64,000 bases of DNA. Origin: Corallococcus sp. NCRR. Its GTDB lineage: Bacteria; Myxococcota; Myxococcia; Myxococcales; Myxococcaceae. The position numbers were made by a program, and so were the translations under genes. Location: contig NZ_CP114039.1 of assembly GCF_026965535.1 (NCBI RefSeq), forward strand, positions 8,163,461-8,227,460, written 5' to 3'. Position 1 is the stretch's first letter. Every line of letters begins with the position of its first letter. Below are positions 18,101 through 34,262 of this stretch, in pieces. Under the pieces are notes generated by a model. It had not been told where the DNA came from. It did not search any database and worked only from the letters and a program-made list of their open reading frames with translations.

Positions 18101-18485
18101 CTCCGGAGACCAGCACCTTGCCAGAGGGCAAGAGCGTTGCCGTGTGGTGGTAGCGAGCCGCGGCCATGGCGCCCGTGGAACTCCACCTCTTCGTCGTCGG
18201 GTCGTAGACCTCCGCGCTGGTGCTGTCTGCCCCGCTGCCGCCGGAGACCAGCACCTTGCCGGAGGGCAACAGCGTCGCCGTGTGGTGGGTGCGTGCCACG
18301 GCCATCGCATCCCTGGAGTTCCACAGTCCGGGGGTCGTGGTTTGGAACGCTTGGGTTTCAGACGCCTTGCGACGCGGTTCTTTGTCGCGGTGCTGTGACA
18401 CCTCACCGCACGCCAGTGACAACAGCGCGGTTCCCAGGAACAGCAGCGCAATCACTTCCAATTTCGCACTTGGAACAGGTGCCAT
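15120..18485 (-). CDS. Kelch-repeat + Ig-like-repeat lipoprotein with MYXO-CTERM (paralog of 11289..15029, convergent)
   Basis: 1121 aa. N-terminal signal MAPVPSAKLEVIALLFLGTALLSLACG with lipobox LSLAC. ~12 Kelch-like repeats (ARY/HHTATLL.SGKVLVAGG). 5 Ig-like units (TPPAAP...GTAEPGSTV.V.L.....G..........ATD.AGN). C-terminal SHFGLGCATAPALPASWALVTLALFFRRRQPRNPV is MYXO-CTERM. GAGGG 6 nt upstream of the ATG, only 10 bp after the stop of the CHAT-STAND gene. Confidence 0.8.
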   Translation of the reverse strand: MAPVPSAKLEVIALLFLGTALLSLACGEVSQHRDKEPRRKASETQAFQTTTPGLWNSRDAMAVARTHHTATLLPSGKVLVSGGSGADSTSAEVYDPTTKRWSSTGAMAAARYHHTATLLPSGKVLVSGGIGADGGALVSAEVYDPATGQWSPTGDMATARYEHTATLLPSGKVLVAGGRDPSPLVSAEVYDPTTGTWRLTDPMGSARADFTATLLPSGKVLVAGGDVGPGRLVASAEVYEPITGTWRLTGSMTAGRSSHTATLLASGKVLVAGGWGPDSANAEVYDPATGAWSLTGSMAGARADFTATLLASGKVLVAGGWGQSPLVSAEVYDPATGGWSPTGSLASARFHHTATLLVSGKVLVAGGEIPDGTLVATEDYEPAAGKWRPTASMATTRWGHTATTLDSGKVLVAGGFGAGVGALVSAELYDPTTGQWSPAGSMPTAHYEHTATLLDSGKVLVVGGGGPGDASAEVYDPVTEKWRSVAPLAEARTGHTATLLDSGKVLVAGGWFQNVFRVNAEVFDPATEKWSSAGAMTSEHVNHTATLLDSGKVLVAGGWKAGISFSAIAELYDPSTGTWSSTGSLTTARYKHTATLLASGQVLVAGGGGRGSVQGSAELYDPATGGWSSTGSLTTARQEHTATLLPFGKVLVAGGRNAGGTLASAEVYDPAAGTWSVTDSMAEPRYKHTATLLPPGKVLVAGGYSRKDSAELYELAGDATPPAAPAILTPDNGFITPNLRPTYSGRAEPGSTLLLWVDDTFVGATVAQVSGAWEFTQPVALVDGSHSVTPRVTDAVGNIVFGSSTRTFTVDTTPPAAPVVLTPANGSTTRETRPSYRGTAEPGSTVTVNLNETWIGTTLTDEAGAWSVPSATALPQGLHSAEITATDLAGNVSPPMACAFTVDSVAPAAPEVMAPGTLINTQNPAIGGTAEMGSTVRVWLDGVEAGKAQTNSAGGWLVTPVAALSEGLHQAVATATDAWGNTSTGSPVHSFTVDTMPPAAPEVHSPGAVANTRKPTLGGVAEPGSTVTVWLDGLLMGTAQMDEAGNWNLTLATDLAEGRHLVVTTATDEAGNTSLRSSEYAFTIPGSHFGLGCATAPALPASWALVTLALFFRRRQPRNPV

Positions 18486-18495
18486 ATGACTGCCC

Positions 18496-21400
18496 TCACG
18501 ATTTGAGCTGTTGCCGTCCCCACGTCTGCTCTTCGCGGGCGTGGGCCTCGCGGGCTTCGTCGAGCCGCTCGCCGAGGTAGCGCTGGCGCTGCCGGACCTC
18601 CAGGCTCGCGCTGGTCAATTGGCGAAGCTGCTCCCGCAGTGAGTTGCCCCCCAGCTTCCACACGCGCGCGCTGCCATCGGTGGCGGCGATGGCCAGCATG
18701 TCTCCTCCGGGGCTGAAGACCGCTCCTGTCACGCGGTCCCCATTGCCGCTGAGCACCAGGGATTCACCGCTCCCGTCCGTGGGCCACACCTGCACGGTGC
18801 CATCTCCGGCGGCGTTCACCACCCACGTGCCTCGGGGATGAAACCGGGCGGTGTGTCCCCGGACCATGACGGCCTCTCCCCTCCCCTCGGCGGACCACAC
18901 GCGCACCGTCCGGTCCTGGGAGGCGGTCAACACGTGGGCCCCGTCCTGGCTGAACTCCACGCTCACCAGCGCCTGCTCATGCCCGCGGAGCACCATCGGC
19001 TCACCCCGGCCGTCCGCGCGCCACACCCGCGCCGTCCCATCCCAGGAGGCCGTCGCCACGCGCTCACCGTCCGGACTGAACACCGCCGCCACCACCCGGC
19101 CCGAGTGGCCCTGGAGCACCACCGGCTCGCCCTGTCCGTCCGCGCGCCACACCCGCGCCGTCCCGTCATCCGAGGCCGTCACCACCCGCTGGCCGTCCGG
19201 GCTGAACACCGCGGTCCGGAGGAACTGCGTGTGCCCCTGGAGCACCACGGGCTCGCCCTGGCCGTCCGCGCGCCACACCCGCGCTGTCGCATCCCACGAG
19301 GCCGTCACCACCCGTTCACCCTCCGGGCTGAACGCCGCCGCCACCACCCGGCCCGTGTGGCCCTGGAGGACCACGTGCTCGCCCGGACCGTCCGCGCTCC
19401 ACACGCGCGCCGTTCCGTCATCCGAGGCCGTCACCACCCGCTGCCCGTCCGGGCTGAACGCCACCGTCCGGACCTCCGCCCGGTGCCCCTTGAACTCCAC
19501 CAGGTCCATGCCGCTGCGCAGGCACCAGAGCCGCGCCGTGCCATCCGCGTGGCCGGTCGCCAGGAGATCCTCCCAGGGGCTGAATGCCAGGGATTGCACT
19601 GTCCCCGCGCGGCGCTGGAGCGTGAGCGCCCGCGGCTGTGTCCGCCAGCGCCACACGCGCGCGGTGCCATCGCGGGAGGCCGTCACCACCTGCTCCCCGT
19701 CCGAGCTGAAGCTCGCGGAGAACACCTCATCCGTGTGTCCCCGCAGCTCCGCGGACAGGCCCCCTCCTTCCGTGCTTCGCACCCTCGCGGTGCCATCCCG
19801 GGAGGCCGTCAGCACCCAACGCCCATCCGGGCTGAAGGCCACCGAGAGGATCTCCCCCCCGTGCCCCGCGAGGCGCATCGCCCCGCCCTTCCCGTCCGCC
19901 CGCCACAGGCGGACCATCCCATCCGCGTGCGCGCTCACCACCAGCCCTCCATCCGGGCTGAAGGCCACCGCGTTGACGAAGCCGGAGTCGCTGCGCAGCA
20001 GGATGGGATCGTCCCGGCCCTCCACGCGCCAGATGCGCACCGTGCCATCCACCGAGGCCGTGGCCACCTGCGTCCCATTCGGACTGAAGACCGCGGCGCG
20101 CAGCTCGCCCGGATGGGCCAGCACCGCCAACACGCCCCGTCCATCCGTGTGCCACACCCTCGCCGTTCCATCGCGCGAGGCCGTCACCACCCGCTCGCCG
20201 GTTGAATCGAAGGTCGCGGCCACCAGGCCCTGTGAGTGGCCCTGGAGCACGATGGGCAGGCCCGTCCCATCCGCCCGCCGCACGCGCGCCGTCCCATCCC
20301 GCGAGGCGGTCACCACCCGTTGACCATCCGGGCTGAACGCCACCATCACCACCTCCGCCAGGTGCCCCGTCAGCACCTCCGGCCCGCCTCCGCCCTCCAC
20401 GGGCCACACGTGCGCGGTCCGATCCGCGGAGCCCATCACCACCCGCTGCCCGTCCGGGCTGAACGCCACGGCCAGCACCTCTCCGCCTTGACCTTCGAGC
20501 ACCTTCGGCAGGCCCGTTCCATCCGCTCGCCACACGCGCGCGGTCCCATCGCTCGATGCTGTCGCCACCCACCGGCCGTCCGCGCTGAGCGTCGCGGCTC
20601 GAACCTGCCCCCGATGTCCTCGCAACACCGCCGAGGCGATGGGCTGCTGGAACACCTCCAGGGCCGTCTGCGTCCAGGACAGGTGCTGCTCGGGCTCGCG
20701 CACCTCCAGCAACACCAACAGGGCGGCCGTGGGATCCTCTCGCCTCAACTTGTCGGCGACGATCAACCGCGCGAAGTCCTGCAATTGCTCCTGCTGCCGG
20801 CGAGCCTCCCGCGCCAGGGTGCTGGCCATCTCCTGACTCGCGTCGATGAACAACCGCATCTGCTCATCCAGCTCACCCGGATGGGTTTGACGCAGCTCCA
20901 ATGCGTCCTCCAGATGCCGGCCCCGCAGGAGACGCTCCCCGGAGGGTGCGGTCCGCGGGTGCGACCGCCAGGCCTCCGCCCCCGTGCGCAGCTCGTTCCG
21001 CTTGCGCTGGAGCGCCTGCGCCTCGCGGATCCATTCACCCAGGGGGCTCCAGTGGCGCAGCAGCGCTTCGTGTGCCACCTCGATGAAGACCTCGCCCCCG
21101 TCCCCCTTTCCAAGCACCAGGACCCGGCCCTCCAACAGCCGGCCCAGCGCGACATCGAAAGCGCGGCGCGCCTCCACGTCCCGGGGCTGGATGCGCGCCC
21201 GGCCCACGCGCTGCGAGGTGAACGGCGCCGCGCCGTCGCGCATGTCGACCAGCTCCACGAACAGCTGGCGCACCTGGTGCCGCTCCTCTTCCCCCAAGCC
21301 CAGGTACAGCCGGTCCAGTTCCTGGGCCAGCGCCCCGGCCACTCCGTCCAGGGCCTGATAGGCGCCGTGCTTGAGCCACCGGCCATCCCGCAGCCGCCAC

Positions 21401-23175
21401 AGCCGCTCCAGCGTGTGCGCCAGCAGTGGCAGTCCCCCGGGTTGGCGCTCCACGTCCTGGAGGAGCCGCTCCGTGAGCCCCACCTCCAGCAGGATGCCCT
21501 GTTGCCACGAGGGACGTTCGATGGCCTCGCGCAGCTCGACCGCCGTCATCTCCGGAACCAGGAGCAGGCGCTCTCCCTCGAAGAGCACCGCGTCCAGCCG
21601 GGGGCCGTCCGCGCCCAGGCGGACCTCGGCGCAACGAGCGAGGTAATCCATCCGCAACGTCGCGAGCACCACCGTGCCCCGCTCGCGGGCCTGCGAGGCG
21701 TCCCACAGCGCGCGCATCAACTCCGCGCGCGCCTCCTCCTCCAGCAGGGTGAACGCCTCATCCAGCGGATCCACCACCACGAGCCGGTGCTTGCCCGGAG
21801 AAGCCTTCACGGCGCGGACCGTCTCCAGCGTCCCCGCGTCCCCCGCGCGCAACCGGGTGATCTCCCAACGCTCAGGCGGCAACGTGGGCAGCAGCCCGGC
21901 CCGCAGCAGCGAGGACTTGCCGCTGCCGGAGACCCCGGCCATGACCTGGAGCGCCGGAAGCTGTCCCGCCGCGGCGGCCTCCAACCGCTGGCGCAGCGTC
22001 TGCCGCAGCGGCTCGCGTCCGAAGAAGCGTCGTTCATCGCCGGGCTCGAAGGGCCGCAGGCCGCAATACGGCTGGAAGATGAAGGGACGCAGGTCCGGTC
22101 CATCTCCCGCGCGGGCGTAGAGTTGGAGCGAACAGCCATCCATCCGCGCCCCTTCGAGCCGCAGCGCCCCGCGAGCCACGGCCAGTGACTGCTCCAGGGA
22201 AGCGTGGCGTCCGAGCAGCTCGCCATAGAGCGCGCGGGTGAAGATGACGGACCCCACCTTGGAGAAAGGCAGACGCGAGGCGACCACCGCGGAGAGGCCC
22301 GCGCGGTGCAGCTCGCGAGCAGGGCTGCCCAGGTGGTTGCCGGGGAGCCCCGAGTCGCCGCCACGGCAGGCGCACAGCACGACCATGCGCAGACGCCCCG
22401 CATGCGGTTCGAGCGCCGCGCGCAACGAGGCCGCATCCACCACGTCCAGCTCCCCCTCCCGGCGCGAGGAGTTCCAGGCGAGTCCATACGCCCCGGGCTC
22501 CGATGGAACGCCATGGCACAAGAGGTGGAGCGAGGCGATGGGCTCCTCGCTGGACCGCAGCGCCTGTTCGAGCGAAGCGAGGCTCACGTGGGGAAGCACG
22601 TCCCGTTTCGGATCAAAGGCATACCCCGCCCTGGCGCAGGCCTCTGTCAGGGCGCGCTGGTGCGCCGCCGCGGGCACATCCCCTGCCCACGCGAAGAGGA
22701 TGCGGCCTCCAGCGGGCGGCGGAGAGGGCCGCGGTGGGTGGGTCTTCGAGCCGGGGCGCTCGTAGCAGACGGTGCAGCCCTCCAGGTCGCTGAGCGCCTG
22801 GCCCGTGCTCTCCAGCGCGAGCAACTCCCACGGGAGCACGCACAGCTCCGCGGGCTCCAACCGCAGGGTGAGCCGCACCGTCCCGCCGTCCGACAGCGCC
22901 TGCCGCAATCGCTGCTCATCCTGCGCCCAGCCCAGCGGCATCAGGAACGCGCGCAGCAGCTCCCCCAACCGCTGGGCCGTGTTGGGGCTGGGCCGGCTGG
23001 AGCCCAGGTTGGCCAGGTCGTCCAGTGCGTGGTTCCAGGGGAAGGAGGCCCGCTTGGAGGTGCCCTCCTCTTCCAATCGCAGATAGTCCCGGGGCTGGAA
23101 GAGGAAGCGATCCGCGTCGCGCGTGCGCTCGCCGGAGACGAGGTGGAGCGTGAGTTCCAGGGGACCGAAGGCCAT
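18496..23175 (-). CDS. CHAT (caspase-like) - STAND NTPase - WD40 repeat protein
   Basis: 1559 aa. CHAT-type dyad: His in SLHLLCHGV (aa ~221), Cys in RMVVLCACRGG (aa ~269). Linker PYCGLRPFEPGDERRFFGRE, then Walker A GVSGSGKSSLLRAGLLP (aa ~414), Walker B LVVVDPLDEAF, and a long helical (winged-helix/HETHS-like) arm. From aa ~830, ~14 WD40 repeats (GH...V..A.FS.DG..V.TAS.DGTARVW). Confidence 0.85.
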   Translation of the reverse strand: MAFGPLELTLHLVSGERTRDADRFLFQPRDYLRLEEEGTSKRASFPWNHALDDLANLGSSRPSPNTAQRLGELLRAFLMPLGWAQDEQRLRQALSDGGTVRLTLRLEPAELCVLPWELLALESTGQALSDLEGCTVCYERPGSKTHPPRPSPPPAGGRILFAWAGDVPAAAHQRALTEACARAGYAFDPKRDVLPHVSLASLEQALRSSEEPIASLHLLCHGVPSEPGAYGLAWNSSRREGELDVVDAASLRAALEPHAGRLRMVVLCACRGGDSGLPGNHLGSPARELHRAGLSAVVASRLPFSKVGSVIFTRALYGELLGRHASLEQSLAVARGALRLEGARMDGCSLQLYARAGDGPDLRPFIFQPYCGLRPFEPGDERRFFGREPLRQTLRQRLEAAAAGQLPALQVMAGVSGSGKSSLLRAGLLPTLPPERWEITRLRAGDAGTLETVRAVKASPGKHRLVVVDPLDEAFTLLEEEARAELMRALWDASQARERGTVVLATLRMDYLARCAEVRLGADGPRLDAVLFEGERLLLVPEMTAVELREAIERPSWQQGILLEVGLTERLLQDVERQPGGLPLLAHTLERLWRLRDGRWLKHGAYQALDGVAGALAQELDRLYLGLGEEERHQVRQLFVELVDMRDGAAPFTSQRVGRARIQPRDVEARRAFDVALGRLLEGRVLVLGKGDGGEVFIEVAHEALLRHWSPLGEWIREAQALQRKRNELRTGAEAWRSHPRTAPSGERLLRGRHLEDALELRQTHPGELDEQMRLFIDASQEMASTLAREARRQQEQLQDFARLIVADKLRREDPTAALLVLLEVREPEQHLSWTQTALEVFQQPIASAVLRGHRGQVRAATLSADGRWVATASSDGTARVWRADGTGLPKVLEGQGGEVLAVAFSPDGQRVVMGSADRTAHVWPVEGGGGPEVLTGHLAEVVMVAFSPDGQRVVTASRDGTARVRRADGTGLPIVLQGHSQGLVAATFDSTGERVVTASRDGTARVWHTDGRGVLAVLAHPGELRAAVFSPNGTQVATASVDGTVRIWRVEGRDDPILLRSDSGFVNAVAFSPDGGLVVSAHADGMVRLWRADGKGGAMRLAGHGGEILSVAFSPDGRWVLTASRDGTARVRSTEGGGLSAELRGHTDEVFSASFSSDGEQVVTASRDGTARVWRWRTQPRALTLQRRAGTVQSLAFSPWEDLLATGHADGTARLWCLRSGMDLVEFKGHRAEVRTVAFSPDGQRVVTASDDGTARVWSADGPGEHVVLQGHTGRVVAAAFSPEGERVVTASWDATARVWRADGQGEPVVLQGHTQFLRTAVFSPDGQRVVTASDDGTARVWRADGQGEPVVLQGHSGRVVAAVFSPDGERVATASWDGTARVWRADGRGEPMVLRGHEQALVSVEFSQDGAHVLTASQDRTVRVWSAEGRGEAVMVRGHTARFHPRGTWVVNAAGDGTVQVWPTDGSGESLVLSGNGDRVTGAVFSPGGDMLAIAATDGSARVWKLGGNSLREQLRQLTSASLEVRQRQRYLGERLDEAREAHAREEQTWGRQQLKS

Positions 23176-23193
23176 GGCGGGTCCGCTCCCGGG

Positions 23194-24738
23194 TCAGGCC
23201 ACGAGCAACCGCTCCCGGAAGTAGCGGCGGTACAGCTCACAGCGCGGCAGCACGGCGGTCCCCTCCTGGCGCACCAGCCCCGCGCTCCTCAGACGGATGA
23301 ACACATCTTCGCTCGTACAGGCGCCGCGCTGGAGCACCTCGCGAAGCCCGGCCTTGAGCTGTGATTGGCTGCTCAGCCGGAAGAGCAGGTTGCGCAGGTG
23401 GTCTCCGAACGGCCCCCGGTCCTCCGCCACCTGGGAGAAGAGCTCCGCCACGCCCAGGCTGCCGCTGGCCACCAGGTACAGGGCCTTGCGGACGAGGTAG
23501 GGATGCCCTCCCAACAGGGTGAAGAGCTCCTGGGCCTGCTGCGCGCTCAACGGCGAGCCATGCCGCTGGTTGAGGTCCACCACCTGCGCCGCGGCGAAGT
23601 CGTCCAGCTCCACGGTCTGCCCCACGTTGAAGGGCGACTGCGTCATGTTCTTGATGAAGAGGAAGGGCTCCGTCGAGGTGACCAGGACGATGCTGAGCTT
23701 CTTCCACACCGGCGTGGTGGGCAGCGCGCGGTTGTTGTGCCAGCTGCGCAGCATGCCGAAGAAGTCCGTGCCGAAGGGAATCTCGAAGAGGGTCTCCACT
23801 TCGTCCAATCCCAGCACCAGCGGCGCATCCAACGACCGCAGGATGTGGCCGCTCATGTAAAGGCCGCAGCGCTGGCTGCTGCCCATGGGCTTCTGCCAGT
23901 ACGCCTCCACCTGGTCGGTGAGGCCGAGTTGCTCCCCCAGCGAGCTGCAGAAGCGCTGGAAGAAGAGATCCGGATTGCGGAGCGAGCTGGAGTCGAACTC
24001 CTGGAGCGACAGGTAGGCCACGCGCTTGCCCGCGGTGAGCGCGCCCGCCATGCCCCGCATGAGCAGGGAGCTCTTGCCCATCTGCCGGGCGCCCTTGATG
24101 GTGATGGTCGCCCCCTGCTTGTGCGCGACTGCCTTCATCACCGTCGCGTCCGCACCACGCACGACATAGAAGGCCGACTGGGTGTCCATGGCGCCCTCCA
24201 GGGGCTCGTCCAGTTCGAGCGGTGCCGAAGGAAGCGGCGGCCGCAGCGGAGGGGACGCGGGTTCGGCGGGTGGCACGTCGCGGGAGGCCGGCTTCGTGGC
24301 GGGCAGCGCGGATTCGGGCAGCGCGGATCCGCTCATGGCCCGGGCGAGCTGTTCGAGCAGCCGCGGGGTGTCCTCGGGCCCCTCCCAGAGCGCCCAGTTG
24401 ATGGGGCCCAGGTAGCTGCTCAGGGGCGATGGAAGCCGTTCGTGGTACGCGACCCGGATGGGGAGGAGGACGGGCTTGCCGTACTGCGCATGCTGCTGAT
24501 GCGCCAGCTCGATCTCCATGCGCGCCATCTCGCTGTTGACGGAGAACGGCGACAGCAGCGTGATGAAGAAGTCCGCCTGGCGGATCTCCGCGCCAATCCG
24601 CTCCGCCCACCGTTCACCCACCACCATGGAGGTGTCGATGAACACCTCGTGGGACGCCTGGAGCGCCCGGTAGAGGGCATTGGAGAGGTCCTGGTCCGGC
24701 GTGACGTCGCGCTTGTAACTGATGAAGACACGGGCCAT
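23194..24738 (-). CDS. TIR domain + AAA-like NTPase protein
   Basis: 514 aa from ATG at 24736-24738. N-terminal MARVFISYKRDVTPDQDLSNALYRAL...VFIDTSMVVGERW...NSEMARMEIELA is a TIR fold (FISYxR, catalytic-Glu-like WxxxE context). Central KGARQMGKSSLL P-loop and DEVETLFEIPFGTDFFGMLRSWHN (AAA-like / PF14516-type). The track ORF extends 40 codons further 5', which is rejected because TIR domains are N-terminal. Confidence 0.8.
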   Translation of the reverse strand: MARVFISYKRDVTPDQDLSNALYRALQASHEVFIDTSMVVGERWAERIGAEIRQADFFITLLSPFSVNSEMARMEIELAHQQHAQYGKPVLLPIRVAYHERLPSPLSSYLGPINWALWEGPEDTPRLLEQLARAMSGSALPESALPATKPASRDVPPAEPASPPLRPPLPSAPLELDEPLEGAMDTQSAFYVVRGADATVMKAVAHKQGATITIKGARQMGKSSLLMRGMAGALTAGKRVAYLSLQEFDSSSLRNPDLFFQRFCSSLGEQLGLTDQVEAYWQKPMGSSQRCGLYMSGHILRSLDAPLVLGLDEVETLFEIPFGTDFFGMLRSWHNNRALPTTPVWKKLSIVLVTSTEPFLFIKNMTQSPFNVGQTVELDDFAAAQVVDLNQRHGSPLSAQQAQELFTLLGGHPYLVRKALYLVASGSLGVAELFSQVAEDRGPFGDHLRNLLFRLSSQSQLKAGLREVLQRGACTSEDVFIRLRSAGLVRQEGTAVLPRCELYRRYFRERLLVA

Positions 24739-24752
24739 GGGGCTCTTTCCAG

Positions 24753-27700
24753 TCACTGGGTCAGGGGCAGGCGCGAACACGTTTGTCGATAGGGAGCGAC
24801 CTCGCGCACATCCGCGGGCCACTCCTCGGGCTTCAGGTTGCGGGGTAACAACAGACACGCGAGCTCAATCCAATCCGAGGCCCGGACAGGCCACAGGCGC
24901 GCGACACCGTCATCGCTGGCGGTGGCCACGCGGGTGCCATCCGGGCTGAAGGCCACCGCGCGCACCCGCTTCTCGACGGGCAGGCTCGCCAGCCGGCGGC
25001 CGGTGGCGGCCTCCCACAGGCGCGCCGAGCCATCCTCGCTGGCGGTGATCAGCAGCCCGCCATCCGGGCTGAAGGCCACGGAGGTGACCGTGTTGTCATG
25101 CTGCAATTGCTGCCGCTCCTGGCCCGTGGCGACGTCCCAGACGCGCGCCTTGCTGTCCTCACTGGCGGTCACCAGACTCAGGCCATCCGGGCTGAAGGCC
25201 AGCGCGGTGACCACCAGGCCATGCTGGAGGGGACTTCCCAGCGGCTCGCCGGTGGCCACGCTCCACAACCGCGCGGTGTTGTCATCACCGGCCGTGGCGA
25301 GACGGGTCCCGTCCGGACTGAAGGCCACGATGCGCGCGGCATGCTTCAGTGGCGGGACCCGGCTCGCGCCGGAGCGCGTATCCCAGAGCCGGATGAGGCC
25401 CTCGTCGCCGGACGTGGCCAGCACCCCGCCGTCCGGGCTGAAGGCCACCGAGTCAACGCCCTCCGCATGCTCCAACCGCACCCGCTCGTGGCCCGTGGCC
25501 ACCTCCCAGAGGCGCGCGGTGTGGTCCTCGCTGGCGGTGGCCACGAGCGTGCCATCCGGGCTGAAGGCCACGTCCATGACCCTGCCGGCGTGAGGCAGGC
25601 GCATCAGCAGCGCGCCATCCGACACGCGCCACACGCGGGCGACCTTGTCCGCACCGGCGGTGACCACGCGCGTGCCGTCCGGGCTGAAGGCGACGTCCAG
25701 GACCCGGCCGTCGTGCACCAGGGGTGGCCCCGAAGGTTCGCCCGTGTCCGCGCGCCAGAGCGATGCGGCCTTGCCTTCCGTGGCGGTCGCCAGCAGCCGG
25801 CCGTCCGGACTGAAGGCCAGTTGGGTGACGGCCGTCTCATGGGGAAGCTGGACGAGCGGAGGACCGGGAGCGAGGGCCCAGAGGAGCGCGAGTCCACCCT
25901 CGGTGGCGGTCACCAGTTGCCTGCCATCCGGGCTGAACGCCACGGCGTTGACGCGGCTCTTGTGGGGCAGGAGCACCTGCTGCTTCCCCGTGGCCGCGTT
26001 CCACAGGCGGACGGTCTTGTCCTCGCTGGCGGTGGCCACGAGCGCGCCGTCCGGGCTGAAGGCCACGGAGGTGACGGCCTTGTCATGTCGCAGGGCCATC
26101 AACTCCCGGCCGGAGGCGAGCTCCCAGAGCCGCGCGAGCTTGTCCTCGCCGGCCGTGGCCACGAGCGCACCGTCCGGGCTGACGGCCACCGACATGATGC
26201 GGGTCTTGTGTTGCAGGATCTTCCCCACCCGCTTGCCGGTCTCCGCGTCCCACGTGCGCGCCGCCTTGTCCGCGCCCGCGGTGATGAGCGTCCTGCCATC
26301 CGGGCTGAAGGCCACTGACAGGACGCGGCTGCGGTGTTCGAGCGGCTCACCGAGGGCCAAGCCCGTGGCGGTGCTCCAGATGCGCACGAACCGGTCCTCG
26401 CCAGCCGTGGCCACGCGGGTGCCGTCCGGGCTGAAGGCCACGGCGTTGATGCCGCCGTCGTGGCGCGCGGAGGTCATCCGGGACGTCCAGGTCCGCGTGT
26501 CCCACAGGCGCGTGGTGCCATCGTCACTGGCGGTGGCGGCCATCCGGCCGTCGCGGCTGAAGGCCACCGCGGTGACCACGTCGTCATGGCGAAGCACCTG
26601 CCGCTGATAGCCGGCGTAGCCCATGGGGATCTCCCAGAGGCGCGCGGTGTGGTCCTCCCCCGCGGTGAGGACCTGGGTCCCATCCGGGCTGAAGGCGACC
26701 GCCAGGACGTTGCCCTCGTGCTCCATCCGGGTGGTCAGGGGGTGGCGAAGCTGGACGAGTGAGCGGATGAGGGAGTCCATGGCCTCGGGAGAGCCATGGA
26801 GCCGCACCGCCTCCGTGGAGAGCGCGGTGCTGACCGTCAGGTTCGACGAGGCACTGCGGAGCGTGGCGTCCGCCTTGTTCATGAAGACGTAGGAGGCCGC
26901 CTCGCGCAGCCGCAGCGCGGTCTCGTCTTTCGCCTGGGCGATCTCCCGCTCCGCCTGCGCCTTCTTCTCCTGCGCCTGCCGCGCCTCCGCCTGCAGCCAG
27001 CGCGCCTCCTCGCGGAAGCGTTCGGCCTCCTGCCTGGACTTCTGGGCCTCCGCCCGCGCGTTCCTCTCGATGCGCGTGGCCTCTTCCTGCGCGGCGGTCG
27101 CGCGCGCCACGATGGTCTCCGCCTCCTTCTCCGCCAGGGACCGGGCCTTCTCCGCGCCGTCCCGGAGCCGCTGGGCGCGGTCCCGCTCCGTGACGGCCGC
27201 ATTGCGAGCACGCTCGGTCTCCGCGAGCCGCGCGTACAGGAGCAGCGAGGCGGGCAGCAGCACGATGAAGCCCGCGATCACCAATCCCAGCGCGGCCAGC
27301 CGGACTACGCGCCAGTCCACCGGCAGTTGGTTGCGCGCCCACGGCACGGTGAAGACGCGCTCGTAGATGGAGTTTCGCACCCGCAGCAGGTCACCCTCGC
27401 GGCGCACCACGCCCGACAGCTTGAGGTGTGACTTCACCAGCGAGCGTTCTTCGTCGAGCACCCGCCGGCCGCGCCGGATGTCCTGGTAGGTCCTGAGGAC
27501 GCGCTCCGGATCCGGCGCGCGGCGGGTCAGCATGTCGCGGACGAAGACCAGGTTGTTGTCCTGGAAGCTGCGCTCCGCGAAGAAGGTGCGCTCCATCACC
27601 TGCTGCGTGGACTCGCGCGTCCAGAGCGCGCCGTCCGTCAGCCGGTAGTGGTCCACCAGGGCCTGACACAGCCGCTGCGTGAGATAGGGATGGCCGCCGG

Positions 27701-28427
27701 TCCATTCCAGCACCCACTCCAGGACCTGCAGCCCCGTCTCGATCGAGTCCCCCAGCCCGCGCGCCAGCGGCTCGGCTTCCTCCAGGGCGAAGTCCGTCAA
27801 CTCCACCCGCTGCCCCAGGTTGAAGGGCGTGCGCTTCTCGTCCTGGATGAGGTCTCCCGGGGTCGCCACGCCCACGAGCACGAACGAGATGCGCAGCAGC
27901 TCCGGGTTGCTGGCCCGGGCGTTGTAGAGGTAGCGGATGGCCGCGTAGAAGTCGTCCGTGAAGCCCATCCCCAGCGTGGTGTCGATCTCGTCCACGAAGA
28001 TGGTCACGCGCTCCCGGACCTCGACGACCACCACTTCTTCCAGGAAGCGGGTCAGCCGCTGCACGGGGCCTTGTCCGGCATGGCGGCTCCACCACTCGGA
28101 CGCGTCCGTGTGCAGCTCGAGCTGCTCCTGGATGACGACCAGCAGTCCCACGTACCACTGCTCCGCCGTCACCTGTTTGCCAATGCGGGTCAGGTCGATG
28201 ATGACCGAGCGGATGCCCTCTTCGTAGAGCTGCTCCGCAGTGCGAACCATCAGGCTGGACTTGCCCATCTGCCGGGCCGTCAGCACGAACGCGAAGGTCC
28301 CCGCCCGGCACAGCTCGACCATCTCCTGGTCCGCGCGCCGGGCCAGGTACACACCGCCGCCCGCCTGCACCGTGCCACCGACGGTGAAGAGGCTCGAATC
28401 GTTCAAGCTTGGGATGTTGTCGAGCAC
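24753..28427 (-). CDS. AAA-like NTPase - TM segment - coiled coil - WD40 repeat protein
   Basis: 1224 aa, GTG start at 28427 (in-frame TGA 7 codons upstream). N-terminal domain homologous to the middle domain of the TIR gene (LTARQMGKSSLMVR, FVDEIDTTLGMGFTDDFYAAIRYLYNAR). Hydrophobic helix LAALGLVIAGFIVLLPASLLLY. ~110-aa Glu/Arg/Ala-rich coiled coil (ERARNAAVTERDRAQRLRDGAEKAR...). ~15 WD40 repeats to the C-terminus. Confidence 0.8.
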   Translation of the reverse strand: MLDNIPSLNDSSLFTVGGTVQAGGGVYLARRADQEMVELCRAGTFAFVLTARQMGKSSLMVRTAEQLYEEGIRSVIIDLTRIGKQVTAEQWYVGLLVVIQEQLELHTDASEWWSRHAGQGPVQRLTRFLEEVVVVEVRERVTIFVDEIDTTLGMGFTDDFYAAIRYLYNARASNPELLRISFVLVGVATPGDLIQDEKRTPFNLGQRVELTDFALEEAEPLARGLGDSIETGLQVLEWVLEWTGGHPYLTQRLCQALVDHYRLTDGALWTRESTQQVMERTFFAERSFQDNNLVFVRDMLTRRAPDPERVLRTYQDIRRGRRVLDEERSLVKSHLKLSGVVRREGDLLRVRNSIYERVFTVPWARNQLPVDWRVVRLAALGLVIAGFIVLLPASLLLYARLAETERARNAAVTERDRAQRLRDGAEKARSLAEKEAETIVARATAAQEEATRIERNARAEAQKSRQEAERFREEARWLQAEARQAQEKKAQAEREIAQAKDETALRLREAASYVFMNKADATLRSASSNLTVSTALSTEAVRLHGSPEAMDSLIRSLVQLRHPLTTRMEHEGNVLAVAFSPDGTQVLTAGEDHTARLWEIPMGYAGYQRQVLRHDDVVTAVAFSRDGRMAATASDDGTTRLWDTRTWTSRMTSARHDGGINAVAFSPDGTRVATAGEDRFVRIWSTATGLALGEPLEHRSRVLSVAFSPDGRTLITAGADKAARTWDAETGKRVGKILQHKTRIMSVAVSPDGALVATAGEDKLARLWELASGRELMALRHDKAVTSVAFSPDGALVATASEDKTVRLWNAATGKQQVLLPHKSRVNAVAFSPDGRQLVTATEGGLALLWALAPGPPLVQLPHETAVTQLAFSPDGRLLATATEGKAASLWRADTGEPSGPPLVHDGRVLDVAFSPDGTRVVTAGADKVARVWRVSDGALLMRLPHAGRVMDVAFSPDGTLVATASEDHTARLWEVATGHERVRLEHAEGVDSVAFSPDGGVLATSGDEGLIRLWDTRSGASRVPPLKHAARIVAFSPDGTRLATAGDDNTARLWSVATGEPLGSPLQHGLVVTALAFSPDGLSLVTASEDSKARVWDVATGQERQQLQHDNTVTSVAFSPDGGLLITASEDGSARLWEAATGRRLASLPVEKRVRAVAFSPDGTRVATASDDGVARLWPVRASDWIELACLLLPRNLKPEEWPADVREVAPYRQTCSRLPLTQ

Positions 28428-28520: not shown

Positions 28521-28556
28521 GCTGACGCGCAAATGACGCGTCAGTTGCGCGTCAGC
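28521..28556. promoter_or_regulatory. 10-mer array A: perfect 36-bp palindrome of three 10-mers at 11-bp phasing (putative enhancer/UAS)
   Basis: GCTGACGCGCAA-a-TGACGCGTCA-g-TTGCGCGTCAGC. Outer units are reverse complements of each other and the centre unit is self-palindromic (contains an ACGCGT core). Confidence 0.55.
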
Positions 28557-28581: not shown

Positions 28582-30135
28582 CTACGGGAGAGGCGGCGCG
28601 GGGATGGAGCGGTCCGAAGTGGGCTCGCCCAATAGCAAAAGCAGTTCCGCTCGCCGGTTCTCGCCCCGTCCTGCCTGTGTGCCATTGGAGCCCAAAGGCC
28701 GACGTGCCCCGAGGCCTCGGGCTTCCAACCGGTGCGCCGGGACGCCCTTGCGCAGCAGGTAGTCACGCACCGCCTCCGCGCGGGCCAGGGACAGGCGCTG
28801 GTTGGAGGCGGAGGAACCTTCCGCGTCCGTGTGCCCTTCAATGACGACGCGCTCCACTTCTGGATGCTCGATGAGCACCCGAGCGACCTGATCCAGCACG
28901 CGCGAGCGGTCCGGCAGCGTCGTCACGCCGACCTCGAAGAAGACCTGACCGTGGAGGATGAGGCGCTCGCGGGTCAGGGTGACGAGCGGGTCACCCGTCT
29001 CGGGGCAACCGCCATGCTCCCGGGTCCCCTTCTCGTGGATGCAGGCGTCGAGCACGTCCACGACGCCGTCCCCATCCGTGTCGGTCTCGGTGGCTGACGG
29101 CTCCGGCGTGGGAGGCTCGGGAGGTGGGGGTTCGGAAGGCGTGGGCTCGGGCTCGAGCTGGGGCTCGGCGGGAGCACGCGGCAGGCCCGTGACGAGCTCG
29201 TAGACGATGTTCTCCGGGGGCGGACGCGGCGGCTTGTCGAAGAGCAACAGGGCTACTCCCGCGAGCACCCGGAAGCGGGGCACCCCGGGCTCCGAGCCCA
29301 GCCCCGCCCCCCCCATGGCGAAGAACTCCCACGGACGGACGGGGGCGTAGCGCAGACCGCCCAGCAGCTCGCCGCTGACGCGCTGCTGCCGAAAGGAGTA
29401 GGCGCCCAACGCGGACACCTCCGCGCGGAAGGCGTACCCCACCGTCAGCCCCGCGCCTGCCCGCAGCTCGTTGCCCACGCCGTTAAGGCCCTCCACGCTG
29501 GAGTCGGACACCGACCGACGAAGGAGCACACCCAGCTCCAGTGCTGGAGCCACGGCCCCCCACCGCTTGCCCATCATGACGCGGCCCTGGCCGCGGACGC
29601 CCCGGTCACGGGCAAGCGCGCCCGAACCGCCCACGGGCAACCGCATGTCCAGGTCGAGCGCCAGGTGGAAGGCCTCGGGAGCGGAGGTCCCCAGCAAGCC
29701 GAACCGGGCCGCGAGCCGTGGCGCCCCGAGCCCGCTGTGTGAAGGCGATGCGATGGACAGCGAGGTGCTCAGGTCCGCGCCGCTCTGGTGGATGACGCCC
29801 GGAAGCTGGGCCTGGAGCTCCAACCAGGGCAGCACGCCAACGGCCAGCGACACCAGTCCGGTGGTCCGGGACAGGACGAGCGAGGGCTCCAGCAAGCCGT
29901 TCGCGATCCTCAAAGGGGAGTGCTGGTAGTGCGCCATCAAGGAGATGCGCAGCGCTCCGGGCGCAAGCAACTCACCATTCCCGAGCGCCAGGGGCCCCAG
30001 TCCCGGATTGGGGTCCAGGCGCTCCAGGGAGAACGTGGGCAGGGCCGTGGCGTCCTGGGCCCGCGCGGGGGTGGCGAGCAGCAACAGCCCCAGCGCGGCC
30101 GCGCCACGCGCACATCGGTGCCAGACCGGACCCAT
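28582..30135 (-). CDS. OmpA-family protein (C-terminal OmpA/peptidoglycan-binding domain), Pro-rich linker
   Basis: Signal peptide MGPVWHRCARGAAALGLLLLATPARAQ (ATG 30133-30135; alternative ATG 30153 or in-frame GTG 30228 inherited from the duplicated leader). Pro/Glu linker PEPTPSEPPPPEPPTPEP, thrombospondin-type TDTDGDGVVD. C-terminal OmpA signature VVIEGHTDAEGSSASNQRLSLARAEAVRDYL. Confidence 0.8.
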   Translation of the reverse strand: MGPVWHRCARGAAALGLLLLATPARAQDATALPTFSLERLDPNPGLGPLALGNGELLAPGALRISLMAHYQHSPLRIANGLLEPSLVLSRTTGLVSLAVGVLPWLELQAQLPGVIHQSGADLSTSLSIASPSHSGLGAPRLAARFGLLGTSAPEAFHLALDLDMRLPVGGSGALARDRGVRGQGRVMMGKRWGAVAPALELGVLLRRSVSDSSVEGLNGVGNELRAGAGLTVGYAFRAEVSALGAYSFRQQRVSGELLGGLRYAPVRPWEFFAMGGAGLGSEPGVPRFRVLAGVALLLFDKPPRPPPENIVYELVTGLPRAPAEPQLEPEPTPSEPPPPEPPTPEPSATETDTDGDGVVDVLDACIHEKGTREHGGCPETGDPLVTLTRERLILHGQVFFEVGVTTLPDRSRVLDQVARVLIEHPEVERVVIEGHTDAEGSSASNQRLSLARAEAVRDYLLRKGVPAHRLEARGLGARRPLGSNGTQAGRGENRRAELLLLLGEPTSDRSIPAPPLP

Positions 30136-30261
30136 CCGTGCATCTTCCGTCATGTCGCGCTCGGGGCGAAGGGGAATGGCGGGGTGCGGCATCCGGCGGG
30201 TCGCAGCCAGACGGATGTCGTTGAGCACGCCGTCAGAGCCGCCTCGTCCGTGGGCTCCAAG

Positions 30262-30325: not shown

Positions 30326-30361
30326 GCTGATGCGCAACTGACGCGTCAGTTGCGTGTCAGC
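30326..30361. promoter_or_regulatory. 10-mer array B (near-palindrome, 11-bp phasing) in divergent intergenic region
   Basis: GCTGATGCGCAA-c-TGACGCGTCA-g-TTGCGTGTCAGC, with 2 mismatches relative to perfect two-fold symmetry. Flanked by a minus-strand GG-N10-GC ~50 bp to the left and a plus-strand TGGCAC-N5-GTGCA ~68 bp to the right. Confidence 0.55.
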
Positions 30362-30445: not shown

Positions 30446-30504
30446 AAGCAATGCCTGGCCGCCTGCTCCACAGGCGATGCCCAAACCCTAGCGGAGCGCC
30501 CCGG

Positions 30505-33500
30505 ATGCGCCGACTCCAGTCATTGCTTGCCCTGAGTCTGTCTTTCCTTGTCGCTTGCGCCCCGGTGGCACCGGACGCTCCTGACTCGGCCAGCGAAGCC
30601 TCGCAAACGCACGCCCTGGATTTGACCCGTACCTTTGATACCACGGTGTCTTGGACCGGTGCTTCGAGGTGCTCGACCTGCAACAGCCAGTACTATGCCT
30701 GTTCAGACAACACGGGGAACTGGAACAACGGGGTCCAGGAGTTCGCGGACCCGGTTCCTGCTGGTTGGGTCGTCACGGGTGCGAAGGTGACGGTCGGCGT
30801 CCGGGGCTACGATGGTGGGCTCATGACCGTGCTGCTGAACGATCAGGCTCTGGGAAGCTTCAATCCTGCGCTCACCTCGGTCTTCGATTGCCACAGCTGC
30901 CAGACGCAGGTCTTCAGCCGCACCTGGTCCGATCCGAAGGGGATGCCCGGATACCAGTATCGGGGCAAGAACTCCCTCAAACTGCAGACGGACAAGACCA
31001 ACTGCGTAGCTTCCGCGACGATCACGTTGACCGCGGCACGGCCACTCCTTCAGTACAGCGCCAGCAGTCTGCCCTTCGGCGCTGTCTCGCTGGGCACATC
31101 CAGCACCCAGACCGTGACCCTGACCAACACAGGCGATACACGTCTTGTCATTGAAAAACCCAGCGTCCCCCCGCCATTCACGCTCGCGGTGGTGGCCGAT
31201 CCCCTCGTCATCAACACTGGAAGCAGCGTGAACCTGAGCGTAACGTTCACCCCCAAGGAGGAGAGCTACGCCTCCGGAATGCTGTCGTTCCAAAGTAGTG
31301 ACCCCGACCTCCCGCATGTCGGGATCTCGCTGCAGGGCACGGGAGGCCTCGCCCGGCTCTCGGTCAATCCCACCGCTCTCGATTTCGGGGCGGTGCGGGT
31401 TGGAACGACCAGCAGCAAGTCAGTTTTCCTGAAGAATTCAGGGTCCCTCCCGATCGTCCTCTCCTCCGTCTCCACCCGGTCCCCCTTTTCGGTCGACGGA
31501 GTGCCTCCAGAGGGCCTCATCCTAAAGCCGAATGAAGTCCATTCACTCACGGTGTCTTTCACTGCATCGGCTGGAGTTTCCACCGAGGCCTTGCATGTCC
31601 AATCGACCCCATTCGCCGAGATTGCATTGCGTGGAAAGGGAATCGAATCCTCCATCGCTATGGCAACCTCTTCGATGGACTTCGGCATCCACTCAGTGGA
31701 AGGCCAATCCATCATAAAATCGCTCACGGTATTCAACCAAGGGCAGGCCGACCTCTTCATCCAAAGCGTCAGCGTCAAGCCCCCCTTTACAGTGAAAACC
31801 GCCCCCACCCTGACCATCAAGGCACAGGGCAAAGCGGAACTACAGCTCGCCTACAGCCCCCAGGAGGGTCAGGCGAACGACAAGCTCATCCTCAAGAGCG
31901 ATGACCTGCGGACTCCGGAGTTGCAGATTGACCTCACGGCAACGGGAGTGAAGGGCGAAGCGCTTGAGATTACAATGCCTGACGGTGGCCTTGATTTCGG
32001 CAAGCAGGATGTCCATGCCCCAAGCCCCCCTCGGATCCTGACTCTCAAGAACACGGGACCCGCGACGCTCGTCGTTGAGCCCATCCAGGCCCCCACTGGA
32101 TACTCCGTAACCCCGGCCGACCGTCGCGCACTCGCACCAGGAACCGCAGTCCCTCTCCAGGTGACGTTCGAGCCGACATCCATCGGCCAATTCACCCATG
32201 ATCTCACAATTACAACAGATGGCCCAGGAGGGGGGGCCCAGTCGCAACCGCTCAACGGACAGGGAGCCGAAGCCGATCTGAAAGCCTATCCTGCCGCGCT
32301 GTCGTGGTTGGACGCCGGGGTGGAGGTGGGAGACACCAGTAGCCCATTGACGCTGACGCTCGCCAATGAAGGCGAAGAGGGACTCACCATCAACACCGTC
32401 GCGGTGGAGGGGCCGTTCTCCCTGCAGGCTCCGTCATTCCCAAAGACATTGGGGCCCAATTCCGCACTCCCCCTGACGGTCACCTTCAAGCCCGCGGCCC
32501 GTGGGAATGCGTCCGGATTGCTTCGGGTGTTCTTGGCGACGCACAAGCCCCCCATGGTCGTGAAACTCCACGGCACCGGATTCCAGGCGGCCCCCCGAAT
32601 CTCCCATGCCATCCTGGATTTTGGAGGGCAGCGGCTCTCCACAACGAGCGCACCGCTTGAGATGACGCTGTTCAACACCGGAACCGCGAACCTCCTCGTG
32701 ACGGCGGTGAATGTGACGGGGCCCTTCTCGGTTTCGGAACTCACCCCGGGAGTCCAGATCGTGCCGGGAGGCAAACACCCCATCCGAGCGACCTACAAGC
32801 CTGTCGAGGCGGGGGCGGAGAGCGGGATGCTGGAAATCCAGGGTGGGCTTCCGGGTCCCGTCCAGGTAGTGCTGCGGGGCGCGGGGACCACGGCGTCGCT
32901 CGAATCCTCCGTCACGGCGGTGTCCTTTGGTTCGCAGGACATGGGCACCACGCAGCACCGGGCCGTGGAGTTGCTCAATACGGGCACGAGCCCCGTCACC
33001 GTTTCCAGGCTCGACCGCTCGGAAGGATTCTCCATCTCAGGCCTGCCCCTGCCCCACGAGCTGACGCCCGGCGAGAGACATCACTTCCACGTGAGCTTCA
33101 CGCCGGCCCGGGCAGGCGATCATTCCGGGTCGCTTGCGCTGTTCCACGACGCCTCCCCGTCACCGCTCACGATCGCGGTACAGGGTACTGGCGTGGCGGA
33201 GGCAATGACGGTGACACCAGGCTCCATCGCGTTCGGCAACCAGCGGGTGAATACCTCCAGCGAGTCCATTCCCCTGGAAATCACCAACACCGGCAGCGCT
33301 CCCGTAACCGTGGCCGTGGAGTCCTCCGACACCGCCTTCCAGGTGGACACTCGCGGGGTCGCGGCCCCCATGCCTGCGGGAGGCCGGGCCACCGTCGAGG
33401 TGGCGTTCCGCCCGACGCAATCTGGTCCAGTGCGTGGCGAACTCCGCGTCGTGCCGAGCGGGAACGGACTCGCCCCAACCGTCGTTCTCGTAGAGGGCTC

Positions 33501-33873: not shown

Positions 33874-34035
33874 GTGCGCCGACATGAACTGAGCGATGCC
33901 GAGTGGAGCCGCATTGAGCCCTTGCTGGGCTCGCGCAGCGGCCCTCCCTCGAAGCGCGGGGACCGCGACTTCATCAACGCCGTCGTCTGGCGCGTGAAGA
34001 CGGGCGTGCAGTGGCGCGACCTGCCCGAGCGATAG
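33874..34035 (+). pseudogene. truncated IS5-family (DUF4096-type N-terminus) transposase remnant
   Basis: GTG-initiated MRRHELSDAEWSRIEPLLGSRSGPPSKRGDRDFINAVVWRVKTGVQWRDLPER* (54 aa) matches the conserved N-terminus of IS5/ISL2-group transposases, which normally run ~250 aa. Premature stop, and the downstream frames do not continue the transposase. Confidence 0.6.
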
Positions 34036-34262
34036 TGAAGTTCAGGGAGGCCATTGGGGGCAGTGTGGCCGCCAGCTTGAATGGGGCCGTCATGCTCATG
34101 CCTATGACGTGGGTAAGCATCGCCGCAGGGCTCGAAAGGCGACGTCAATTGCGGTTTGAATCATGCGGTCGCTTTTTACTGTCCCTCCGTTAGAGGGAGG
34201 GTAGCTCGCCAGAGTCAGATCTTGTCATTCCGAATCGCTGCGCCACTCAAAAGGAGACACCC

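Follow-up and report, generated by a model that had tools for sequence, protein, structure and literature searches.

Three long genes, referred to here as A, B and C, lie head to tail on the minus strand of a 64,000-nt stretch of the Corallococcus sp. NCRR genome (contig NZ_CP114039.1, positions 8,163,461 to 8,227,460), as was apparent from the list of its open reading frames (ORFs). The whole stretch is called the window; its G+C content is about 70%, and all coordinates given below are counted from its first nucleotide. This study concerns genes A and B, a pair that is a real and conserved feature and probably makes up a two-subunit NLR-like receptor with a membrane-spanning sensor.

Gene A (24753..28427, 1224 aa), the presumed sensor subunit, starts with GTG behind GAGAAAGGGG, according to inspection of the start region, and its product combines an A-type AAA_35 module, one transmembrane helix, a charged coiled-coil stalk and 14 WD40 blades (ORF and Pfam data). 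A spacer of 14 nt (24739..24752) containing the Shine-Dalgarno-like GGAAAGAG separates it from gene B (23194..24738, 514 aa), the presumed effector subunit, in which the ORF, Pfam and AlphaFold2 analyses revealed a TIR domain, a disordered Pro-rich linker and a B-type AAA_35 module at the extreme C-terminus. After a second spacer of 18 nt (23176..23193) with GGGAG there follows gene C (18496..23175, 1559 aa), coding for a CHAT caspase-like protease (residues 90-339), an nSTAND1 NTPase (369-741) and WD40 repeats, as defined by Pfam and synteny. The short spacers leave no room for a terminator between A and B or between B and C, and the scan of the locus for promoters and terminators gave nothing over the shuffled background. 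In its longest form, the ORF of gene B extends on the minus strand from GTG 24858 to 23194. The ATG at 24738 (MARVFISYKRD), 14 nt past the gene A stop and behind GGAAAGAG, is most likely the true start; the identical NCBI protein has 514 aa, i.e., the length counted from this ATG, and GTG 24858, overlapping gene A, is probably not used. An exact-sequence look-up of the B protein in the contig index returned no entry.

The initial annotation, made from the sequence alone, claimed that the middle part of the TIR protein (B, with the motifs KGARQMGKSSLL...DEVETLFEIPFGTDFFGMLRSWHN) and the N-terminus of the WD40 protein (A, with TARQMGKSSLMVR...FVDEIDTTLGMGFTDDFYAAIRYLYNAR) are paralogous. This claim was borne out, both proteins containing a module of ~340 residues that belongs to Pfam family AAA_35 (PF14516, "AAA-like domain"). 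In a single BLASTP comparison, residues 222-547 of B (numbered along the longest ORF) aligned with residues 18-359 of A with 26% identity and 44% positives over 348 columns, far past the P-loop (E=7e-25). The Pfam profile of 331 positions was matched by gene B at positions 3-331 (E=1.7e-103, 346 bits) and by residues 18-359 of gene A at positions 4-329 (E=2.5e-29, 103 bits), in both cases full-length and above the gathering score of 27 bits. When the profiles of 39 B-type and 36 A-type homologues were aligned with each other, the similarity covered 326 columns with E=5.4e-38.

The two modules of one locus are not each other's closest relatives. In the alignment of 72 pairs from other loci (described below) together with the window pair, A and B modules shared 22-31% identity versus at least 48% within the A type and at least 53% within the B type, and the same-locus A-B identity (27.3%) was equal to the cross-locus one (27.0%). 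A recent duplication or gene conversion was rejected on the latter ground. Since the A-B identity falls far below that within either type, and partners from one locus are no closer than those from different loci, the duplication has to be ancient; judged from these sequences, the A- and B-type modules are clades that separated before their spread across phyla.

AlphaFold2 models of gene B (predicted local distance difference test score, pLDDT, 83) and of residues 1-420 of gene A (pLDDT 80) were compared with solved structures. In the models, a helical lid and a winged helix come after the nucleotide-binding domain, which is the layout of the STAND/NLR-like NTPases such as Apaf-1/CED-4, plant NLRs and MalT. 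The fold is that of the archaeal Walker-type ATPases PAB2304 (2qen) and SSO1545 (2fna), of ORC/Cdc6 and of the nucleotide-binding domains of NLRs; ORC/Cdc6, plant NLRs, CED-4, MalT, TnsC, mS29/DAP3 and Avs3 ranked after the archaeal ATPases. A sequence search of PDB found no AAA_35 homologue among the solved structures. On the basis of the SSO1545/PAB2304 and mS29/DAP3 fold matches, and of the family name derived from two adjacent Nostoc genes, AAA_35 may tentatively be placed in the MNS clade of STAND (the "Npun2340/2341 family"; Leipe et al. 2004, cited in PMC8195603).

The nucleotide-binding motifs are intact in both types, with Walker A (RQxGKSS) and Walker B (DE) invariant in all 39 B-type and 36 A-type homologues. 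The A-type module of the window (27351..28376, residues 18-359) contains the Walker A motif ARQMGKSS at 28254..28277 (residues 51-58, with R52, Q53, G55, K56, S57 and S58 invariant) and the Walker B motif TIFVDEID at 27981..28007 (residues 141-149, with D146 and E147 invariant). Its B-type counterpart (23212..24198, residues 181-509) has an invariant ARQMGKSS at 24067..24090 (residues 217-224) and LGLDEVE at 23794..23814 (residues 309-315, with D312 and E313 invariant). Across the pairs, 55 columns were conserved and identical in both types, while 60 were conserved but type-specific. The most suggestive difference was found between strands beta4 and beta5, at the position of box VII in AAA+ proteins, located in the model by its secondary structure: the A type has K-R-T-P-F-N with a candidate arginine finger (R199, 27831..27833), conserved in this type only, whereas the B type has Q-S-P-F-N with an invariant glutamine (Q367 in TQSPFN, 23638..23640). 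This held in eight of nine divergent pairs. From these alignments it would appear that only A can complete the active site of a neighbor through an arginine finger, so that the assembly would be asymmetric, as in ORC.

Outside the shared module, the annotated division of labor, with the effector on one protein and the transmembrane helix, coiled coil and WD40 repeats on the other, was confirmed by Pfam, the repeat count and hydropathy. In gene B only TIR_2 and AAA_35 were detected by Pfam, with no repeats. The TIR domain (24334..24732, residues 3-135) resembles in the model the TIR of SARM1. Its putative catalytic glutamate, E75 (24514..24516), is invariant in the 39 homologues and falls opposite the WCxxE glutamate when aligned to the TIR of Cat1 (9mud), although the E-value of this alignment is weak; the domain is predicted to cleave NAD+. 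Gene A has, after AAA_35, a hydrophobic helix, a charged helical stretch and 14 WD40 blades but no effector domain. The transmembrane helix (27231..27299, residues 377-399, LAALGLVIAGFIVLLPASLLLYA) consists of 23 uncharged residues with a Kyte-Doolittle value of 2.58. The stalk (26748..27230, residues about 400-560), rich in Ala, Glu, Arg and Gln, is TolA-like in composition, the match to tolA_full being weak (E=0.009), and in the model a helix spanning residues 372-419 runs on from the transmembrane one. The 14 counted repeats (24855..26723; Pfam WD40 E=7e-140) would form two seven-bladed propellers, a predicted extracytoplasmic sensor.

The matches listed for the two proteins included relatives in cyanobacteria, Blastocatellia and Chloroflexi, where gene B shared 52-56% identity with TIR-AAA_35 proteins and the NTPase part of gene A 55-63% with AAA_35-WD40 proteins. 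Among the close B homologues the TIR domain was constant, with an N-terminal CHAT added in ~47 of the 120 listed, EAD7 in seven, a kinase in three and trypsin in one. The myxobacterial orthologues of gene A retained 82-85% identity in the AAA_35 part, 55-61% in WD40 and 49-58% in the stalk, which indicates at the sequence level that the sensor part changes more rapidly than the NTPase.

To look at the conservation of the pair, one genome per species was scanned with the B module, yielding 429 matching stretches, 80 of which were examined together with three metagenome loci (83 loci in total). An A-type gene adjoined the B-type gene in every informative locus; the three loci without it (L010, L031 and L062) are all cut by contig ends. 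The paired loci came from Myxococcota, Cyanobacteria, Acidobacteriota, Chloroflexota, KSB1 and Abditibacteriota, and their hosts are mostly filamentous or social bacteria. Genes were ordered B-to-A in 61 loci, divergently in six and A-to-B in five, the last being the myxobacterial ones. In all 72 complete pairs, the effector resided on B, the repeats on A, and each protein had an NTPase module of its own. In most of the B-to-A loci the start codon of A precedes the stop of B, giving an overlap of 8 nt (35 or 4 nt were also seen), an arrangement which, read from sequence, bears the signature of translational coupling. The divergence of the partners was correlated across the loci (r=0.85 between the distance matrices). 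Many of the contigs (L009-L083) break off within the WD40 region of the A-type gene, and a "partial" tag is frequent among the database entries for these proteins; the WD40 repeats evidently break short-read assemblies, and A-type proteins are probably under-counted and shortened in the databases.

The same rule of pairing applied far beyond the close relatives. Distant AAA_35 genes on the plasmids of cyanobacteria, Chloroflexota and Abditibacteriota were paired in five of the six loci inspected, with the module at the extreme C-terminus of the effector protein, behind a variable effector and with a high Pfam score, and at the N-terminus of the sensor protein, ahead of a variable sensor and with a low one. 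The pairs (TM, transmembrane helix) were CHAT-AAA_35 with AAA_35-TM-GUN4 (locus L090); Pkinase-AAA_35-GerE, a Ser/Thr kinase with a LuxR-type helix-turn-helix (HTH), with AAA_35-TM-WD40 of 14 blades (L084); Trypco1 and then Trypsin-TIR-AAA_35 with AAA_35-TM-WD40-Amidase_3 (L085); X-AAA_35 with AAA_35-HisKA-HATPase_c (L087); and TIR-AAA_35 with AAA_35-PAS-GAF (L086). Further B-type outputs included TIR with GerE (protein P0247) and a response-regulator receiver (P0290), and P0256 has two B-type modules within one chain. Many AAA_35 copies are plasmid-borne and lie near integrases, toxin-antitoxin genes and NACHT or NB-ARC genes. In L087 (2333-11349, on a plasmid of Nostoc sp. TCL26-01), two AAA_35 pairs stand in tandem beside a NACHT gene, the second, CHAT-TIR-AAA_35 with a 942-aa AAA_35 protein, following the one named above; a Walker A motif was looked for by regular expression in the first B-type protein of this locus and was not found. 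The family is large: when 1.84 billion cluster representatives were searched with the B module, 9,055 clusters (50% identity) were returned at E≤1e-3. Of the 150 best B-type clusters, about 140 have the module at the very C-terminus, preceded by variable N-terminal extensions of 0-1170 residues.

Three proteins were found to carry both types of module in one chain: P0340 (Trypsin-TIR-AAA_35(B)-AAA_35(A)-TM, with Trypco1 upstream and no separate A gene), P0289 (X-AAA_35(B)-AAA_35(A)-ATPase_2) and P0241 (AAA_35(A-like)-TIR-AAA_35(B), with an AAA_35-WD40 gene after it). Such fusions are Rosetta-stone-type evidence for the A and B modules acting together, and since they keep two modules, the pair is not a broken single-module NLR. 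Four AAA_35 modules were seen in one cluster on Logan contig SRR16915454_1639147 (L094, 865-8508), in the order of a 330-aa AAA_35 protein, the AAA_35(A-like)-TIR-AAA_35(B) fusion and an AAA_35-WD40 protein overlapping the fusion by 8 nt; the A-like module of this fusion is without the arginine (KNSPF).

The idea of the initial annotation that an NLR had been separated onto two proteins whose effector and sensor arms work together stood only in part. The arms do lie on separate chains, and the constant adjacency, the gene overlaps, the correlated divergence, the distant pairs and the fusions all speak strongly for their joint action via the shared NTPase module. The separation itself was not the fission of an NLR with one NTPase, as each gene has a full module. 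Nor does A or B have the tripartite layout of STAND proteins, with effector, NTPase and repeats in one chain.

The position of the sensor relative to the membrane was deduced from the whole set of A-type proteins. A helix directly past the AAA_35 module with hydropathy of at least 1.6 in a 19-residue window was present in 68 of 74, its hydrophobicity but not its sequence being kept across phyla. Averaged over the 74 proteins, the flank before the helix has a net charge of +1.86 and the flank after it one of -0.31. An N-in, C-out topology is expected, as the NTPase requires cytoplasmic ATP. In five A-type relatives encoded beside TIR-AAA_35 genes, CHASE2 (E=3.5e-62) comes past the helix and precedes further helices, to which one of the five adds a kinase; single relatives have PAN_4 right before WD40, PEGA/CarboxypepD_reg, or WD40 followed by an N-acetylmuramoyl-L-alanine amidase (Amidase_3). 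All of these are extracytoplasmic domain types. The positive-inside bias, together with the relatives that have CHASE2, PAN or a peptidoglycan amidase in the place of WD40, suggests that the repeats are extracytoplasmic, and from these patterns gene A is likely, though by no means certain, to encode a single-pass membrane protein with its propellers outside the cytoplasm.

Altogether, these results led us to propose that A and B form a two-subunit NLR-like (STAND/ORC-type) machine built on two anciently diverged versions of AAA_35, with A as the receptor and B as the TIR output, a reading to which we assign a probability of roughly 0.6. That the two proteins are subunits of one system is highly probable. 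It is also rather likely that they hetero-oligomerize via AAA_35, and for an immune or cell-death role, drawn by analogy, the odds seem about even.

The mechanism that we infer, including the hetero-oligomerization, the membrane topology, the TIR activity, the role of the arginine finger and the biological trigger, would run as follows. The NTPase module of A would stay in the cytoplasm, with one helix crossing the inner membrane and the charged stalk bearing the two WD40 propellers outside, while B would be soluble, with TIR tethered to its own AAA_35 module. Detection of a ligand or an envelope event by the propellers would shift the nucleotide state of the A module, and A would then nucleate a hetero-oligomer with the module of B, in the manner of NAIP-NLRC4 or the ORC/Cdc6 paralogues. 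The TIR domains would thereby be gathered at the membrane and activated, and NAD+ depletion or a nucleotide signal might lead to growth arrest or cell death. TIR domains must oligomerize in order to act, a fact well known from SARM1, from plant TNLs and from bacterial TIR effectors. With A alone giving the arginine finger, ATP on B would be hydrolyzed only at the A-to-B interfaces, a step by which the assembly would be set or reset. The gene C product could probably supply a protease arm in myxobacteria.

Several observations weigh against this proposal. The neighboring genes encode Kelch/Ig surface proteins and an OmpA-family protein, and the window is no obvious defence island; no PADLOC model, and none from NCBIfam, matches the NTPase modules of A or B; and no homologue was found in the phage records searched. 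The immune role is for these reasons an analogy only. The correlation of r=0.85 could be explained by shared inheritance alone. Each fusion comes from one metagenome or short-read contig, and an assembly or frame error is possible, but the 45-residue linker of P0340, absent from ordinary pairs, counts against such an error. As for the membrane, WD40 repeats of the sequence type found in gene A are usually cytoplasmic, and six of the 74 A-type proteins are without the helix, e.g., the soluble AAA_35-PAS-GAF protein of L086; the pair can therefore do without membrane insertion.

Of the systems described so far, the nSTAND2 two-gene operon (Kaur, Iyer, Burroughs and Aravind 2021, eLife; PMC8195603, Figure 6C) comes closest; it is mobile, with a paralogous basal ("MNS-like") STAND module in both products, an effector on one partner only and a toroidal hetero-multimer predicted by its authors. 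In nSTAND2, however, the effector partner has lost the nucleotide-binding motifs and both partners keep the arginine finger, whereas the AAA_35 pair has Walker A and B intact in both proteins and the arginine in the sensor type only. The nSTAND2 systems also differ in their GT4 or HEPN effectors, mainly gammaproteobacterial hosts and lack of a transmembrane sensor (PMC8195603). Membership of A or B in the nSTAND2 family was rejected, hhalign against the published alignment giving E=0.084 (probability 0.7%) for B and E=0.0037 (probability 8.9%) for A. Thoeris was rejected as well: the TIR matches were sub-threshold only (ThsB1 with E=2e-4 in PADLOC; ThcB4 with 24.8 bits versus a cut-off of 220), and there is no ThsA-like gene within the cluster.

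NLR-like proteins are generally viewed as single chains sensing intracellular ligands. Avs/AVAST, bNACHT, TIR-NLR and CHAT-nSTAND1-WD40 proteins have one chain with one NTPase module and are cytoplasmic, in contrast to the two chains, two modules and membrane-spanning sensor described here. In the paired NLRs of eukaryotes (NAIP-NLRC4, plant RRS1/RPS4 and the NRC helpers), a paralogous sensor and executor co-assemble via their nucleotide-binding modules, and the plant genes are often adjacent, but both members of such a pair are complete NLRs, each carrying repeats; in the AAA_35 pair the executor is devoid of repeats and the sensor of an effector, and the kinship is limited to the STAND/AAA+ fold. 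ORC/Cdc6 and the archaeal Walker-type ATPases share 13-19% identity with the module and differ in that the AAA_35 pair has no replication context and carries effector and sensor domains. Toll-like and IL-1 receptors with their TIR adaptors, and PknD of M. tuberculosis with its extracellular beta-propeller, place a repeat or propeller outside, one helix in the membrane and a signalling module in the cytoplasm. Their topology matches the predicted one, and a TIR adaptor is likewise recruited by a homotypic domain interaction; in the AAA_35 pair, the homotypic domain is an NTPase, TIR is predicted to be an enzyme instead of a scaffold, and there is no homology of the sensors or transmembrane segments.

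No account of the pair turned up in a full-text literature search that covered AAA_35/PF14516, alone and with TIR or WD40, and STAND proteins having a transmembrane segment, TIR and WD40. The lone real mention placed AAA_35 among the accessory domains of cyanobacterial sigma factors, and the supplements of two papers from the Aravind group contained no AAA_35, TIR+STAND+TM or TM+WD40 entry for the A-B system. What is new here is the sensor subunit spanning the membrane, with WD40 propellers predicted to be extracytoplasmic. The locus points to a large uncharacterized family in which an oligomerization module was duplicated, one copy serving sensors and the other effectors; both are swapped freely between pairs, and the sensor often lies across the membrane. 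If confirmed, this would bring into bacterial immunity or signalling a modular design with two subunits, provide a prokaryotic parallel to paired or helper NLRs and to receptor-plus-TIR-adaptor pathways, and offer a simple system to study asymmetric assembly by paralogous AAA+/STAND subunits.

A bolder form of the two-subunit proposal, which we put forward only tentatively, is a widespread Toll-like transmembrane innate pathway of bacteria, in which an outer receptor linked to WD40, CHASE2, PAN or amidase would act through nucleotide-driven hetero-oligomerization of two paralogous NTPases on a clustered cytoplasmic TIR (and CHAT or trypsin) executioner. Events in the periplasm or envelope, such as phage adsorption or injection, attack by a predator or contact with non-kin, would be its possible triggers. 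If true, this would be the first known case of an NLR-type machine sensing events beyond the cytoplasm, and an example of a nucleotide-binding ring that needs two paralogues and has its arginine finger on one side only.

The pair might instead be a general transmembrane signalling device, responding to envelope state, cell-cell contact, kin recognition or development and not directed against phages, with TIR as one output of several. The kinase with the LuxR-type HTH in L084, TIR-GerE (P0247) and the receiver of P0290 agree with this, as do the histidine-kinase and GUN4 domains of A-type partners, the mostly filamentous or social hosts, the surface proteins encoded nearby in the window and the lack of a PADLOC match. 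The commonest outputs (TIR, CHAT, trypsin and the EAD7 adaptor) are, however, typical of conflict systems (PMC7159879, PMC8195603), and many copies are found on plasmids beside integrases, toxin-antitoxin and NACHT/NB-ARC genes, and we regard such a purely signalling function as rather unlikely.

The helix might also be mispredicted or act as a tether on the inner face of the membrane, leaving WD40 in the cytoplasm to sense an intracellular ligand like the classical bacterial NLR-like proteins. Where G-beta-type WD40 repeats are joined to STAND NTPases, they normally lie in the cytoplasm, gene C being such a case; the charge bias of gene A itself is weak, with three K/R on each flank of the helix, and some A-type proteins have no helix at all. 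Against this stand the family-wide charge bias and the fact that a lone uncharged helix of 23 residues in mid-chain must put its flanks on opposite sides of the membrane, and the CHASE2-helices-kinase, PAN_4-WD40 and WD40-amidase arrangements are sensible only outside the cytoplasm, making the cytoplasmic placement unlikely.

In another scheme, A would be a negative regulator or guard: its membrane-bound module would cap B, and a signal or the loss of A would free B to homo-oligomerize through its own AAA_35 module and TIR to fire, much as in toxin-antitoxin or guard systems. Adjacency, overlap and correlated divergence are as compatible with this as with the receptor-effector pair, an arginine finger present only in A fits A driving hydrolysis on B and holding it in an ADP "off" state, and the two B-type modules of P0256 hint at B-B contacts. 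The variable C-termini of the A-type proteins (WD40, CHASE2, PAS-GAF, GUN4, histidine kinase) look like sensors and occupy the position usual for activating sensors in NLRs, and we consider the guard role doubtful. Finally, simple fission of a TIR-NTPase-WD40 gene, or a chance neighborhood of genes without functional coupling, could draw on the tendency of NLR-like genes to cluster (gene C here, NACHT/NB-ARC neighbors in L087 and L091), but is highly improbable, as fission gives one NTPase module and not two complete ones, the module clades split before their spread across phyla, the fusions retain both modules, the genes adjoin in every informative locus, their reading frames overlapping in most of the B-to-A ones, and no single-module TIR-AAA_35-WD40 chain was present among the 240 homologues listed or the 83 loci.

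Gene C lies directly 3' of gene B in seven of seven myxobacterial loci. Myxobacteria keep the A-B-C trio without conserving the OmpA gene or the other flanks, by which synteny of the whole region as the cause of gene C conservation was partly rejected. The gene C product is a complete single-chain NLR-like protein and, taken alone, nothing unusual within the known caspase-nSTAND1 class (PMC8195603). In cyanobacteria, the extra domain most often fused to B is likewise CHAT, and gene C may, with low confidence, be a co-inherited protease arm of the A-B system. The two-gene EACC1-caspase system (PMC7159879), which has a small single-helix EACC1 protein encoded just 5' of the caspase gene, was rejected for gene C, its 5' neighbor being gene B, 18 nt away, with no small transmembrane ORF between them. 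A tandem array at 18980-19588 (period 126/252 nt, 80-88% matches) appears from its sequence to consist of WD40 blades recently amplified or homogenized, as in diversifying NLR sensors. In gene A the blades have diverged far more, with a single tandem row at 24998-25226 (75% matches).

Other features of the window were noted outside the three genes. Large neighbors of the surface or signalling type are encoded at 11289..15029 (+), 15120..18485 (-), 30451..33750 (+) and 46510..49425 (-); they comprise two proteins with Kelch propellers and Big_13/Big_6 Ig-like domains, one ASH/HYDIN Ig-like repeat protein and one Ser/Thr kinase with TPR. The G+C content falls to 0.51 at 34001-36000, compared with ~0.70 elsewhere, and this stretch may be recently acquired DNA; the 712-aa ORF in it (34263..36401, +) had no Pfam match. 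A palindromic element, CTGACGCG-N7-CGCGTCAG, occurs as two overlapping copies at each of two sites (28522-28555 and 30327-30360), which flank both sides of the OmpA-family gene (28582..30228, -), i.e., four matches versus 0.23 expected by chance; it could be a terminator, an operator or a repetitive extragenic palindromic (REP)-like repeat.

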